Positions 507 to 52,598 of a DNA stretch of 64,000 bases are shown here, one piece after another. The position numbers were made by a program, and so were the translations under genes. Each line of letters begins with the position of its first letter. The stretch's first letter is position 1. The notes below the pieces were generated by a model. It saw nothing but the letters and a program-made list of their open reading frames with translations. It was not told the DNA's origin and did not search any database. The stretch comes from Escherichia coli (GTDB lineage Bacteria; Pseudomonadota; Gammaproteobacteria; Enterobacterales; Enterobacteriaceae). The stretch lies in the NCBI RefSeq assembly GCF_003790525.1, contig NZ_CP033635.1; one strand, 5' to 3'.

Positions 507-3011
507 ATGTCACAAACTATCGACCTGACCCTGGACGGCCTGTCCTGCGGTCACTGCGTTAAACGCGTGAAAGAAAGTCTCGAACAGCGCCCGGATGTTG
601 AGCAGGCGGATGTGTCTGTCACTGAAGCGCACGTTACCGGGACTGCCAGTGCAGAACAGCTGATCGAAACCATCAAACAAGCGGGTTATGACGCATCTGT
701 AAGCCACCCAAAGGCTAAACCGCTGGCGGAGTCATCAATCCCGTCGGAAGCACTGACAGCGGTTTCTGAGGCGCTTCCGGCAGCGACCGCCGATGACGAT
801 GACAGCCAGCAGTTGCTGCTGAGCGGCATGAGCTGCGCCAGCTGTGTCACCCGCGTACAAAATGCGCTGCAAAGCGTACCGGGCGTCACTCAGGCACGGG
901 TAAACCTGGCGGAGCGTACTGCGCTGGTGATGGGCAGTGCCTCCCCACAAGATTTAGTGCAGGCGGTGGAAAAAGCGGGCTACGGTGCGGAAGCGATTGA
1001 AGATGACGCGAAACGCCGTGAGCGCCAGCAAGAAACCGCCGTCGCTACGATGAAGCGCTTCCGCTGGCAGGCGATTGTCGCACTGGCGGTGGGTATCCCG
1101 GTGATGGTCTGGGGGATGATCGGCGATAACATGATGGTCACCGCCGACAACCGCAGCCTGTGGTTGGTTATCGGCCTGATAACCCTGGCGGTAATGTTTT
1201 TCGCCGGCGGGCATTTTTACCGCAGCGCATGGAAAAGCCTGCTGAACGGTGCAGCGACGATGGATACGCTGGTGGCGCTGGGTACTGGCGTGGCGTGGCT
1301 CTATTCGATGAGCGTCAACCTGTGGCCGCAGTGGTTCCCGATGGAAGCGCGACATCTTTACTATGAAGCCAGTGCGATGATTATCGGTCTGATCAATCTC
1401 GGCCATATGCTGGAAGCGCGCGCACGTCAGCGTTCTTCTAAGGCGCTGGAGAAATTACTCGATTTAACCCCACCGACGGCGCGCCTGGTCACCGACGAAG
1501 GTGAAAAAAACGTGCCGCTGGCAGATGTTCAGCCAGGTATGTTACTGCGCCTGACGACCGGCGACCGTGTGCCGGTAGATGGTGAGATTACTCAAGGCGA
1601 AGCGTGGCTGGATGAAGCGATGCTGACGGGCGAACCTATCCCGCAGCAAAAAGGCGAAGGCGATAGCGTCCATGCCGGGACAGTGGTACAGGACGGCAGT
1701 GTGCTGTTTCGTGCCAGTGCGGTCGGCAGCCATACTACGCTGTCACGGATCATTCGCATGGTGCGCCAGGCCCAGAGCAGCAAGCCTGAAATCGGCCAAC
1801 TGGCGGATAAAATCTCAGCCGTATTTGTGCCGGTAGTAGTGGTTATTGCGCTTGTCAGTGCGGCAATCTGGTATTTCTTTGGTCCGGCACCGCAGATTGT
1901 CTATACCCTGGTGATTGCCACCACGGTGCTGATTATTGCCTGTCCGTGTGCGCTGGGACTGGCGACGCCGATGTCGATTATTTCGGGCGTCGGGCGGGCG
2001 GCTGAGTTTGGCGTGCTGGTACGGGACGCCGACGCGCTGCAACGCGCCAGTACGCTCGATACCGTAGTGTTCGATAAAACCGGGACGCTGACCGAAGGTA
2101 AACCGCAGGTTGTCGCAGTGAAAACGTTTGCTGATGTTGATGAAGCGCAGGCATTGCGTCTGGCGGCGGCACTGGAGCAAGGTTCCAGCCATCCGCTGGC
2201 ACGAGCGATCCTCGATAAAGCAGGCGATATGCAGCTGCCGCAGGTCAACGGTTTCCGCACATTGCGCGGGCTGGGCGTGAGCGGTGAAGCTGAAGGTCAT
2301 GCGTTATTGCTGGGCAATCAGGCGCTGTTAAATGAGCAACAGGTTGATACCAAAGCTATCGAAGCGGAGATTACTGCTCAGGCATCGCAAGGGGCAACGC
2401 CTGTGCTGCTGGCGGTTGACGGGAAAGCGGTAGCCCTGCTGGCTGTACGCGATCCATTGCGTAGTGATAGCGTGGCGGCGCTGCAACGCCTGCATAAAGC
2501 GGGATATCGTCTGGTGATGTTGACCGGGGATAACCCAACCACCGCCAATGCGATCGCCAAAGAAGCCGGGATTGATGAGGTGATCGCCGGGGTGCTGCCG
2601 GACGGTAAAGCCGAAGCGATTAAACGCCTGCAAAGTGAAGGACGTCAGGTGGCAATGGTGGGCGACGGCATTAACGACGCGCCAGCGCTGGCTCAGGCGG
2701 ATGTCGGTATTGCGATGGGTGGCGGCAGTGATGTTGCCATTGAAACCGCGGCGATTACCCTGATGCGCCATAGCCTGATGGGTGTTGCGGATGCGCTCGC
2801 GATTTCCCGCGCAACGCTGCGCAATATGAAGCAGAACCTGCTCGGTGCGTTTATCTACAACAGCATTGGTATTCCGGTCGCCGCCGGTATTTTGTGGCCG
2901 TTCACCGGTACGCTGCTTAACCCGGTGGTTGCCGGAGCGGCAATGGCGCTCTCGTCGATTACCGTAGTGAGTAACGCCAACCGGTTGCTGCGGTTTAAAC
3001 CGAAGGAATAA
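507..3011 (+). CDS. copA: Cu(I)-translocating P1B-type ATPase CopA (834 aa)
   Basis: ORF track 834 aa; two N-terminal heavy-metal-binding motifs ([16 protein letters not shown]), membrane CPC motif, DKTGT phosphorylation site, GDGINDAP hinge; AAAGGAG SD upstream. Confidence 0.97.
707..718 (+). other. copA: Programmed -1 ribosomal frameshift site inside copA (slippery heptamer C CCA AAG, then GGC TAA in the -1 frame), giving the 70-aa CopA(Z) metallochaperone
   Basis: Heptamer at 707-713 is in the X XXY YYZ register for the copA frame (codons 68-69 Pro-Lys); the -1 frame stops two codons later at 716-718, directly after the first HMA domain. Confidence 0.6.
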
Positions 3012-3059
3012 GTATGTCATTGCGGATGCGCTGCTTTAGGGTGGCGCATCTGGCATCGA

Positions 3060-3195
3060 CGCATGCCTGCCGGATGCGGCATAAACGCCTTATCCGGCCT
3101 ACGATTCAGGCACAGGGTTGTAGGCCTGATAAGACGCGTAAGCGTCGCATCAGGCAATGGTGCTCGGATGCCGGATGCCGGATGCGGCGATGTTT
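3060..3195. repeat. REP/BIME cluster (at least two inverted REP units plus a partial unit with a duplicated CCGGATG)
   Basis: GCCTGCCGGATGCGGC...CGCCTTATCCGGCCTAC and TAGGCCTGATAAGACGCG...CGTCGCATCAGGCA palindromic units typical of E. coli REP, in the copA-ybaP intergenic region. Confidence 0.8.
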
Positions 3196-3314
3196 TGGCA
3201 TTACGCGACCTTTTTGCACGTTTTCCCCGGCGTGCCAAATATTTAATCCGTCCCAACTCCATTTGCGCCATCCCTCACCGCGCGCTAGCATGATATTTCA
3301 CAAAGGGAGGTCGT

Positions 3315-4109
3315 ATGGATCTGTTGTACCGGGTAAAAACGCTTTGGGCCGCGCTGCGCGGTAATCATTACACCTGGCCTGCTATCGATATCTCTCTTCC
3401 CGGCAATCGCCATTTTCATCTGATCGGCAGTATTCATATGGGTAGCCACGATATGGCTCCCCTGCCCACCCGTTTGCTCAAAAAGCTCAAAAACGCCGAT
3501 GCGCTGATCGTCGAGGCGGATGTTTCCACCAGCGATACGCCTTTTGCTAATTTGCCTGCCTGCGAGGCGCTGGAAGAGCGCATTAGCGAGGAGCAACTCC
3601 AAAACCTGCAGCACATTAGCCAGGAGATGGGCATTTCTACCTCACTCTTTTCTACCCAACCGCTGTGGCAAATCGCGATGGTTCTTCAGGCGACGCAGGC
3701 ACAAAAACTGGGGCTCCGGGCAGAATATGGTATCGATTACCAGCTATTGCAGGCGGCGAAGCAACAACATAAACCCGTGATTGAACTGGAAGGGGCAGAA
3801 AACCAGATTGCCATGTTGCTCCAGCTCCCTGACAAAGGACTGGCACTGCTGGACGATACGCTGACCCACTGGCACACCAATGCACGGTTGCTGCAACAAA
3901 TGATGAGCTGGTGGCTGAATGCACCGCCGCAAAATAATGAAATAACGCTGCCCAATACGTTCAGTCAGTCGCTGTACGATGTGCTGATGCATCAGCGAAA
4001 TCTCGCCTGGCGGGATAAATTACGCGCCATGCCGCCGGGGCGATATGTGGTCGCGGTCGGTGCACTACACCTGTATGGAGAAGGGAATTTGCCGCAAATG
4101 TTGCGCTAA
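3315..4109 (+). CDS. ybaP: TraB/GumN-family protein YbaP (264 aa)
   Basis: ORF track 264 aa with GGAGG SD upstream; sequence recognised as E. coli YbaP. Confidence 0.85.
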   Translation: MDLLYRVKTLWAALRGNHYTWPAIDISLPGNRHFHLIGSIHMGSHDMAPLPTRLLKKLKNADALIVEADVSTSDTPFANLPACEALEERISEEQLQNLQHISQEMGISTSLFSTQPLWQIAMVLQATQAQKLGLRAEYGIDYQLLQAAKQQHKPVIELEGAENQIAMLLQLPDKGLALLDDTLTHWHTNARLLQQMMSWWLNAPPQNNEITLPNTFSQSLYDVLMHQRNLAWRDKLRAMPPGRYVVAVGALHLYGEGNLPQMLR

Positions 4110-4191
4110 AAAAATGGCCAATATCGCTATTGGCCCGTCAAAGAGGAATTTCATTTTTTTATTATTATGCCGTCACTTTAAGCGACGGTGT
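4108..4191 (-). ncRNA. chiX: ChiX (MicM/SroB/RybC) small regulatory RNA, 84 nt
   Basis: Reverse complement reads ACACCGTCGCTTAAAGTGACGGCATAATAATAAAAAAATGAAATTCCTCTTTGACGGGCCAATAGCGATATTGGCCATTTTTTT, i.e. the ChiX sequence with its GC hairpin and 7-U tail; convergent with ybaP. Confidence 0.85.
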
Positions 4192-4297
4192 AACTCGATT
4201 GTCGCTCAATCTCACCATCCTGCCAATACTCTTAGGCAAGATGACTCTTTTTTTTGGACCGCCATCAGGCGTATGCTTGCTTCGTTTTTTTGTTTAA

Positions 4298-4792
<495 letters not shown>

Positions 4793-4828: not shown

Positions 4829-6481
4829 TTACTGCCAGCTCACCTCACCTTTCGGTTCATAAACACTCACATCCAGCGGCGAGCTTTTCTGGATATACGC
4901 TTTAAGCACTTCGGCATCAATAAAGCCGGTATTCACATAGCCCGGTTTGTTATCAAGGCGCGGATAGCCATCACCGCCGGTGGCATTGAAGTTTAATGTC
5001 GCCATACGATAAGTTTTCGCCGGATCGACCGGTTCGCCTTTGATTTTAAGGTCGTCCAGTTTGCCGCCTTTCGCCACAAAGCTAACGTTAGCAAATTGCG
5101 GGTAGGCACCTGAATCTGGCTTCATCTGCGCGACGGCGGTCAGGTAATCAATCACCTCTTTCCCGGTCATGTCGGCATACACCACCACATTGCCGAATGG
5201 CTGCACTTTCAGCACGTTTTTATAGCTGATATCGCCTGCTTCGATAGAATCACGAATTCCGCCTCCACTCATCACCGCAAAGTCAGCACCAGTGCGATCC
5301 ATTTGGGCTGCCAGAATTAACCGCCCCATATTGGTCTGTACAAAACGCACTTTGTCACGATCGCCTTCCAGACGACCATTGGTTTCGCCTATTTTCACTT
5401 CCAGCTGCGCTTTGCCTTTGTTCTGGAACGGCGATAACAGCGAGATCATTTGCTGGTTTTCAGCGATTTCAGGAGTGTAAAGCACGCGCTCGCTTTTCCC
5501 GTCTTCCCAGGTCACTTTCTTCTTCAGGTTCACCGGAATCAGCTGGTAGTTAACCATTTTCATTTCGCCATTACGAAACTCAAAATCAGCCCGTCCCACG
5601 TATTTGCCCCACTCATGCGCCTGCACAATCCAGATGCCGTTTTGTTGATCCGGTTTGCATGGCGTACCTGGCACGTAATCGACCTGTTTTTTGTTTTCTG
5701 CCGCCATGCAGACCGGATCTTGCGAGTGACCACCAACGATCATCGCCAGCGATCCGGCAGGCAGCGCGCGCGCCATCTCCACATCGCCCGGTGCGTTAGA
5801 GCCGTGCTCACCATTGTCGTAATGCCCCATATGGGTCGCCGCGATAATAATGTCTGGCTTTTCTGTCTGTTGCAGCTCCTGAATCACCAGCTTCGCTTCA
5901 TCGGCGGGCTTACGGAACTCAATATCGGTGAAGTTTTCTGGGTTGCCTAACTTCGCTGTATCATCCGTCGTCAGGCCAATAACGGCAATTTTCAGATCCT
6001 GACGCTTAAACAGCGCCCATGGTTTAAACAGGCGCTCGCCGGTACTTTTCTGGTAGATATTGGCAGAAAGTAACGGGAACTTTGCCCACTTTTCCTGCTG
6101 GCGTAATACGGTGAGCGGGTTATCAAATTCATGATTACCGATTGCCATCGCATCGTAGCCCACCAGATTCATGCCGCGAAAATCAGGTTCGGCATCCTGT
6201 AAGTCAGACTCGGGCACGCCAGTGTTAATGTCACCACCGGAAAGTAGCAGCACGCTACCGCCTTCAGCCGCAACCTCTTTGCGGATACCATCTACCAGCG
6301 TTTTTTGCGCCGCCAGACCATATTCGCCATATTCATTGCGCCAAAAATGCCCATGATGATCATTGGTATGCAGAACTGTAATTTTGTAGGTTTTATCCTG
6401 CTCATACGCCAGAGCAGCTTCACTCGCCAGTGTAAATGTGGTTAACAGTGCTAACGCCACGCCCCGCTGCAATAATTTCAT
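4829..6481 (-). CDS. ushA: Periplasmic UDP-sugar hydrolase / 5'-nucleotidase UshA (550 aa)
   Basis: ORF track 550 aa; N-terminal signal peptide, metallophosphatase motifs (HTNDHHG, GNHEFD). Confidence 0.95.
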   Translation of the reverse strand: MKLLQRGVALALLTTFTLASEAALAYEQDKTYKITVLHTNDHHGHFWRNEYGEYGLAAQKTLVDGIRKEVAAEGGSVLLLSGGDINTGVPESDLQDAEPDFRGMNLVGYDAMAIGNHEFDNPLTVLRQQEKWAKFPLLSANIYQKSTGERLFKPWALFKRQDLKIAVIGLTTDDTAKLGNPENFTDIEFRKPADEAKLVIQELQQTEKPDIIIAATHMGHYDNGEHGSNAPGDVEMARALPAGSLAMIVGGHSQDPVCMAAENKKQVDYVPGTPCKPDQQNGIWIVQAHEWGKYVGRADFEFRNGEMKMVNYQLIPVNLKKKVTWEDGKSERVLYTPEIAENQQMISLLSPFQNKGKAQLEVKIGETNGRLEGDRDKVRFVQTNMGRLILAAQMDRTGADFAVMSGGGIRDSIEAGDISYKNVLKVQPFGNVVVYADMTGKEVIDYLTAVAQMKPDSGAYPQFANVSFVAKGGKLDDLKIKGEPVDPAKTYRMATLNFNATGGDGYPRLDNKPGYVNTGFIDAEVLKAYIQKSSPLDVSVYEPKGEVSWQ

Positions 6482-52411: not shown

Positions 52412-52493
52412 AGAGCTCTCTCTTAGTTTAATTTCCGCCAGGTAATCAGATGACACGACTGTGCTTCACGCCATCTATTAACATGTACGTCAG

Positions 52494-52524
52494 TATATGG
52501 GGATGTTTCCCCCACATTCAACGC
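52494..52524 (-). promoter_or_regulatory. sigma32 heat-shock promoter of lon
   Basis: Transcribed strand reads GTTGAAT-N13-CCCCATAT about 75 nt upstream of the lon ATG. Confidence 0.65.
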
Positions 52525-52536
52525 CGAGAATAGAGG

Positions 52537-52570
52537 AAAAATTAAAGGGGAGATAAAATCCCCCCTTTTT
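52537..52570 (-). terminator. Putative terminator after clpX
   Basis: Short GC stem GGGGA/TCCCC with 7-nt loop followed on the transcribed strand by TTTAATTTTT, 30 nt after the clpX stop. Confidence 0.5.
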
Positions 52571-52598
52571 GGTTAACTAATTGTATGGGAATGGTTAA

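Follow-up and report, generated by a model that had tools for sequence, protein, structure and literature searches.

In Escherichia coli the small RNA gene chiX and the protein-coding gene ybaP converge so tightly that the last bases of the RNA lie within the stop codon of the protein. This arrangement raises the question of whether the contact has consequences for either gene, i.e. whether the hairpin at the end of ChiX also terminates ybaP, and whether the overlap reflects a selected coupling of the two genes or a by-product of packing. The locus was analysed in a stretch of 64,000 nucleotides from E. coli (contig NZ_CP033635.1), hereafter the window, and all positions refer to the window unless MG1655 is named. 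Taken together, the data are best described by a reading in which the RNA is ChiX, the hairpin terminates chiX only, and the overlap of 2 nt is most simply a by-product of packing. We assign a probability of about 0.9 to this joint reading. The locus in itself matters little, as ChiX is among the best-studied enterobacterial sRNAs.

Identity and surroundings of chiX

A covariance-model search of the whole window against Rfam 15 (cmscan) returned a match to RF00368 (sroB, the Rfam name for ChiX/MicM/RybC) at positions 4191 to 4108 on the minus strand. The score of 82.1 bits lies well above the gathering threshold of 44 (E = 1.8e-10), and the match spans model positions 1–83 of 83 without truncation, as expected for a member of the ChiX family. 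The original prediction had placed an intact ChiX of 84 nt at 4108–4191 on the minus strand and proposed an Rfam search as a check; the search recovered exactly this interval. Moreover, the sequence is fully identical to chiX of K-12 MG1655, and the agreement extends over window positions 4066–4330, which cover the 3′ end of ybaP, chiX and the start of ybaK and equal MG1655 at every base. The MG1655 RefSeq annotation lists the ncRNA chiX (b4585) at 507204..507287 on the plus strand, 84 nt in length, and ybaP (b0482) at 507286..508080 on the minus strand. Thus, 4108–4191 is chiX (SroB/MicM/RybC), a well-characterised Hfq-dependent sRNA whose identity rests on the Rfam match, the identity to b4585 and K-12 Term-seq data (see below), and its overlap with ybaP is already contained in the reference annotation and is nothing new. 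The ChiX of MG1655 (b4585; RF00368) has the same 84 nt, the same flanks, the same 2-nt overlap with ybaP, and the same terminator and seed.

Of 5426 complete E. coli genomes, 5422 contain the 151-nt stretch around chiX as a single copy, 4936 of them with at least 99% identity. In genomes annotated with PGAP the sRNA is not listed, and ybaP is the only feature found under the match to the chiX region. This fits the earlier remark that a six-frame view of open reading frames would miss the RNA.

The gene convergent with chiX, ybaP, occupies 3315..4109 on the plus strand according to both the ORF list and the RefSeq annotation, and encodes a protein of 264 amino acids. A scan of YbaP against NCBIfam gave no family match, and its name and its assignment to the TraB/GumN family rest on the RefSeq annotation. 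The stop codon TAA at 4107..4109 (plus strand) is likewise given by the ORF list and by the RefSeq annotation of the identical locus, and the convergent orientation that had been predicted agrees with the reading frames of the window as well as with the MG1655 annotation. On the other side, ybaK lies divergent from chiX at 4313..4792 on the plus strand; it is annotated as Cys-tRNA(Pro) deacylase and matches NCBIfam NF007951 with 329.9 bits. Further outward, copA (507–3011, plus strand) precedes ybaP, and ushA (4829–6481, minus strand) follows beyond ybaK. ChiX therefore sits in the intergenic region between ybaP and ybaK on the strand opposite to both genes, as it does in MG1655, and the same placement and orientation were found in at least 110 other Enterobacterales loci. 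The literature also gives ybaK and ybaP as the genes flanking ChiX. Since ybaK lies downstream of ybaP on the same strand, chiX is antisense within a co-directional ybaP–ybaK spacer, an aspect absent from the earlier description.

Upstream of ybaP, the window differs from MG1655. In K-12, copA and ybaP are separated by ybaQ, a gene for an antitoxin-like regulator of the HigA family; positions 3012–3314 of the window lack this gene, and the gap between copA and ybaP is 303 nt long compared to 794 nt in MG1655. This contiguous junction is likewise present in 1543 of the 5426 complete E. coli genomes, e.g. in SMS-3-5, and a repeat found in a median of three copies per genome makes up part of the copA–ybaP spacer. 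The RNA and its immediate flanks show no difference between the two strains, and the absence of ybaQ leaves chiX untouched.

Structure, seed and 3′ end of ChiX

The 84-nt RNA folds with a free energy of −24.1 kcal/mol (z = −3.9 relative to dinucleotide shuffles) and can be divided into five parts, all on the minus strand. A 5′ stem-loop of 8 bp with a UAA loop (nt 4–22, 4170..4188) appears in both the minimum free energy and the centroid fold. It is followed by an A/U-rich linker, CAUAAUAAUAAAAAAAUGAAAU (nt 23–44, 4148..4169), which is mostly unpaired in the centroid fold, with nt 33–40 pairing with the U tail. The third part is the seed UCCUCUUUGACG (nt 45–56, 4136..4147), the complement of the chiP 5′ UTR and the chbBC spacer. 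The terminator hairpin GGCCAAUAGCGAUAUUGGCC (nt 57–76, 20 nt, 4116..4135) is supported by a terminator scan, by the fold and by covariation; the scan gives a stem of 8 bp with four GC pairs and a loop of 4 nt. A single A (A77, T4115 on the plus strand) separates the stem from the U7 tail (U78–84, 4108..4114), and the 3′ end of the RNA at 4108 is given by the sequence, by Term-seq and by the MG1655 annotation. The RNA thus ends in an intrinsic terminator with a 3′ tail of at least seven U, the module bound by Hfq.

Two of these elements were followed across 107 distinct homologues among the matches listed (see below for the underlying search). RNAalifold on a MAFFT alignment recovered the terminator stem and did not recover the 5′ hairpin. 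In the terminator stem, compensatory changes were found at two of the six pairs predicted by the consensus, among the matches listed, where 17 sequences (one pair) and 4 sequences (the other pair) have G–C in place of A–U. As the sequence of the 5′ hairpin varies too much for the MAFFT alignment, this hairpin was folded for each homologue individually; a hairpin of at least 5 bp formed in 104 of the 107, comprising 92 different sequences (again among the matches listed). The linker is A-rich in all homologues among these matches, and in the E. coli RNA CAUAAUAAUAAAAAAAUGAAAU may represent the stretch expected of a Class II Hfq-binding sRNA.

In this respect, ChiX resembles several known sRNAs. 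SgrS and RyhB, as well as the Class II sRNAs CyaR and McaS, likewise carry a stem-loop with at least seven U behind it at their 3′ ends, and the single-stranded A-rich stretch of ChiX is what a Class II sRNA would be expected to have. Unlike these four, ChiX is constitutive and is controlled mainly by decoy or sponge RNAs rather than by regulation of its promoter. ChiX has been described as a constitutive Class II sRNA that contacts both the proximal and the distal face of Hfq (bioRxiv 10.1101/2021.05.11.443692).

The seed was compared with the target sequences of K-12, as both targets lie outside the window. The 12 nt of UCCUCUUUGACG are a perfect complement of CGUCAAAGAGGA, located just upstream of the K-12 chiP (ybfM) AUG, and CUCUUUGACGGG, i.e. 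the seed shifted by three bases, is perfectly complementary to CCCGUCAAAGAG in the spacer between chbB and chbC, the decoy of ChiX. RNAduplex on whole sequences returned inflated, loop-rich duplexes, and the contiguous 12-nt cores alone were used as evidence. The pairing of ChiX with chiP is backed by compensatory mutations, Rho-dependent polarity in chiPQ is enhanced by ChiX, and both the chbBC spacer and ChiZ act as sponges of the RNA (PMC7815308). Transcription of chiX ends at the intrinsic terminator formed by the hairpin at 4135–4116, one A and U7, and the single-stranded seed pairs with the ribosome-binding region of the chiP (chitoporin) mRNA. Through this pairing ChiX blocks chiP translation and promotes Rho-dependent polarity and decay, and during growth on chitosugars ChiX in turn is titrated by the chbBC spacer transcript and ChiZ. 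The Hfq dependence, the repression of targets and the sponging are taken from the literature; identity, structure, position of the 3′ end, seed complementarity and conservation of the overlap are results of the present analysis.

At the 5′ side, a promoter scan identified a candidate sigma-70 promoter on the minus strand at 4198..4226 (TTGGCA, a spacer of 17 nt, GACAAT), with a −10 hexamer that ends 6 nt before the 5′ end of the RNA at 4191. The match is weak, with 9 of 12 consensus positions, and the 600 nt scanned would be expected to contain about one match of this kind by chance. Directly upstream lies the motif TTGAGCGACAAT, which is kept across Enterobacteriaceae. On these sequence grounds, a sigma-70-type promoter at about 4226–4198 probably drives chiX.

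The experimental data on chiX all stem from K-12, which is identical to the window strain in this sequence. In each of the three growth conditions studied by Term-seq (Adams et al. 2021, PMC7815308), a 3′ end was placed at MG1655 507287 on the plus strand, scoring 445279, 552306 and 955394; the authors class it as primary for chiX, lying antisense to ybaP. As MG1655 507287 corresponds to window position 4108, ChiX ends on its last U, within the stop codon of ybaP. The 3′-end mapping that had been proposed alongside the original prediction is therefore available for K-12, where it yields a very strong end precisely at this base. Further downstream, published DirectRNA-seq in the presence and absence of bicyclomycin revealed a Rho-dependent region antisense within ybaP at MG1655 507468 (about window position 3927, minus strand), about 181 nt past the end of ChiX. 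Across this region the read count drops from 1492 to 22 in the absence of bicyclomycin, and from 2100 to 115 in its presence. The presence of a Rho-dependent stop inside antisense ybaP indicates that a small fraction of chiX transcription escapes the ChiX terminator.

The overlap of chiX and ybaP can confuse the assignment of reads, and some pipelines label ChiX reads as ybaP 3′ UTR. In a RIL-seq study, for example, “ybaP.EST3UTR was considered to be ChiX” (PMC10954441). Similarly, gene callers that forbid overlaps may mis-set the boundaries of chiX or ybaP.

Termination on the ybaP strand

In E. coli, bidirectional terminators are known from convergent gene pairs, and the original prediction had suggested that one hairpin could serve both directions. 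In this case the hairpin at 4116–4135 would end chiX on the minus strand and ybaP on the plus strand. The locus shares several features with such pairs, namely a single hairpin region, the lack of a spacer between chiX and ybaP, and an A tract on one side. A palindromic hairpin can in principle form on either strand, and the centroid fold of the plus strand retains a stem of 7 bp. The plus-strand hairpin, however, is preceded by A7 and followed by CGTCAAAGAGG (as RNA, CGUCAAAGAGG), with one T/U in ten bases and thus no U tract, and a U-rich tract is present on one strand rather than on both. Consistently, the only call for this hairpin in the terminator scan is on the minus strand.

The composition of the plus-strand flank is constrained by the RNA on the other strand. 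As it is antisense to the seed of ChiX, which occurs in at least 120 Enterobacterales genomes, the flank cannot turn U-rich; no U tract can evolve at this position because ChiX would be destroyed. Hence, chiX–ybaP differs from bidirectional terminators in that the U tract and the mapped 3′ end are confined to one strand and the other flank is occupied by the antisense of the seed. In addition, the ybaP stop codon lies 6 nt from the stem, and a terminating ribosome would presumably cover the 5′ arm of the hairpin.

Published 3′-end data point in the same direction. No Term-seq 3′ end is listed on the ybaP strand across MG1655 506900–507499, and the K-12 Term-seq tables hold 507287 (+) only, to be read with the proviso that ybaP may be too weakly expressed to pass the threshold and that a 3′ end could be hidden by this low expression. 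The SMRT-Cappable-seq supplements (PMC6131387) contain neither ybaP, ybaK nor chiX, and thus hold no information on operons or 3′ ends at this locus. A literature search for ChiX together with bidirectional terminators returned an unrelated synthetic terminator only. Based on the plus-strand sequence, the terminator scan and the published Term-seq data, the bidirectional terminator was rejected and is regarded as highly unlikely; this part of the original prediction finds no support, as the plus strand has no U tract, the scan call is restricted to the minus strand, and the Term-seq data show no end on the ybaP strand.

If ybaP were read through, the transcribing polymerase would meet RNA polymerases that start from the chiX promoter. 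As a separate observation, a weak terminator-like site was found on the plus strand at 4266–4289, between the chiX promoter and the start of ybaK, with a stem of 5 bp followed by CTTCGTTTTT. This site could end ybaP read-through or could be a chance occurrence; the scan of the region gave four sites where 0.8 are expected.

Conservation of the overlap between ybaP and the U tail

On the plus strand, the U7 tail of ChiX corresponds to a run of seven A at 4108–4114, and the TAA at 4107–4109 shares exactly two nucleotides with it, 4108–4109. The contact without any spacer, as originally described, is evident from the window sequence and from the MG1655 annotation alike. Species-representative genomes were scanned with a ChiX core pattern, AAATTCCTCTTTGACNGGCC, which yielded at least 120 loci; as the loci were collected with this pattern, the invariance of their seed carries no weight as evidence. 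The matches listed include Escherichia, Salmonella, Citrobacter, Enterobacter, Klebsiella, Kluyvera, Serratia, Yersinia, Rahnella, Pantoea, Erwinia, Hafnia, Proteus and others. YbaP was located at each locus by tblastn and extended in frame to its stop codon. Among the matches listed, 116 loci (115 Enterobacterales genomes and the window) carry ybaP convergent downstream of chiX.

In 88 of these 116 loci, among the matches listed, the ybaP TAA falls on the last two U of the tail (−2), as in the window, a count that is inflated by shared ancestry since loci rather than evolutionary events on a tree were counted. Four of the 116 loci listed, from Pantoea, end in a TGA that overlaps by one base (−1), and in another four of the 116 listed the reading frame extends 17 nt into the hairpin (−17). 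One locus of the 116 listed reaches 87 nt into chiX (−87), and the remaining 19 of the 116 show a spacer of 3–230 nt between ybaP and the U tract. The protein tails are far less uniform than the position of the stop. In the 88 loci with the −2 arrangement among the matches listed, the YbaP tail after the conserved HLYG motif varies between 9 and 13 residues and ends in 45 different terminal hexapeptides. Thus, among these matches, the stop codon stayed on the U tract while the tail of the protein changed.

The four −17 loci (L041, L048, L066 and L094) carry a G in place of the A that follows the U tract, and here the ybaP reading frame continues through the A run with the tail ...QKNGQ*. These loci belong to Enterobacter sp. 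ENT03, an Enterobacteriaceae metagenome-assembled genome, Phytobacter and Kosakonia. Only six of the 19 spacer loci listed have an A directly after the U tract; this A is thus tied to the stop codon and not to ChiX. In Phytobacter massiliensis, the locus at −87, the in-frame extension of 87 nt across chiX might be due to a frameshift, or else arise artificially from where the tblastn match ended.

Two explanations of the conserved overlap were considered. In the first, the U tail would be fixed by termination and Hfq binding; together with the following A it would spell TAA on the opposite strand, and ybaP would simply run to this first in-frame stop. In the second, the overlap would be selected, either because read-through RNA from ybaP, or from ybaP and ybaK, would act as a cis-antisense sponge of ChiX, or because head-on transcription from the strong chiX promoter would insulate ybaK by blocking read-through from ybaP, a form of transcriptional interference. 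Such a coupling draws on the fact that any ybaP transcript that continues past its stop codon would be perfectly complementary to ChiX, an RNA known to be controlled by sponges. Furthermore, ybaP and ybaK are co-directional with antisense chiX between them in all loci examined, and 88 of the 116 loci listed keep the overlap despite the variable YbaP tail; an overlap of this kind is conserved from Escherichia to Serratia, Yersinia and Pantoea. Read-through of chiX into antisense ybaP does occur, where it is stopped by Rho about 181 nt downstream (see above). Conversely, the data examined report no transcript on the ybaP strand across chiX, and the level of ChiX was constant across nutrient and growth conditions in a global study (bioRxiv 10.1101/2024.06.20.599902). 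In addition, 19 of the 116 loci listed have spacers of 3–230 nt with ChiX intact, so that the tight overlap is dispensable. The papers found to name both ChiX and ybaP do so in annotation or as flanking genes only, with no regulation described and no experiment that links ybaP to ChiX. The strong conservation of the exact overlap is compatible with either explanation; selected coupling is considered very improbable.

The simplest reading is that the U tail and the A behind it supply the first in-frame stop of ybaP, and that the overlap is a by-product of packing. Its conservation across species is new here, but a modest addition to what is known of this RNA. It offers a minor example of the way in which constraint on an sRNA terminator can determine where an adjacent reading frame stops.

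Outside the 116 loci, Proteus faecis (L065) and Proteus cibi (L091) carry a ChiX-like core with a terminator and lack a downstream ybaP; in P. cibi, ybaK lies about 2.8 kb away. Accordingly, the synteny is broken in Proteus. A match of the 19-base core pattern in a metagenome-assembled genome labelled Candidatus Lindowbacteria (L060) has no T run after it, and probably arose by chance, as about two such matches are expected in a collection of this size, or through contamination.

Besides chiX, the Rfam search of the window located further RNA elements. The sRNA sraA (RF02029) was matched over its full length at 52483–52578 on the plus strand with 106.7 bits. Three others lie on the minus strand, namely the dnaX element for programmed −1 ribosomal frameshifting (RF00382, 17868–17932, 96.8 bits), the nucleoid-associated ncRNA naRNA4 (RF02564, 9868–9945, 81.1 bits), and the gene of the 4.5S/SRP RNA (RF00169, 34735–34831, 68.1 bits).
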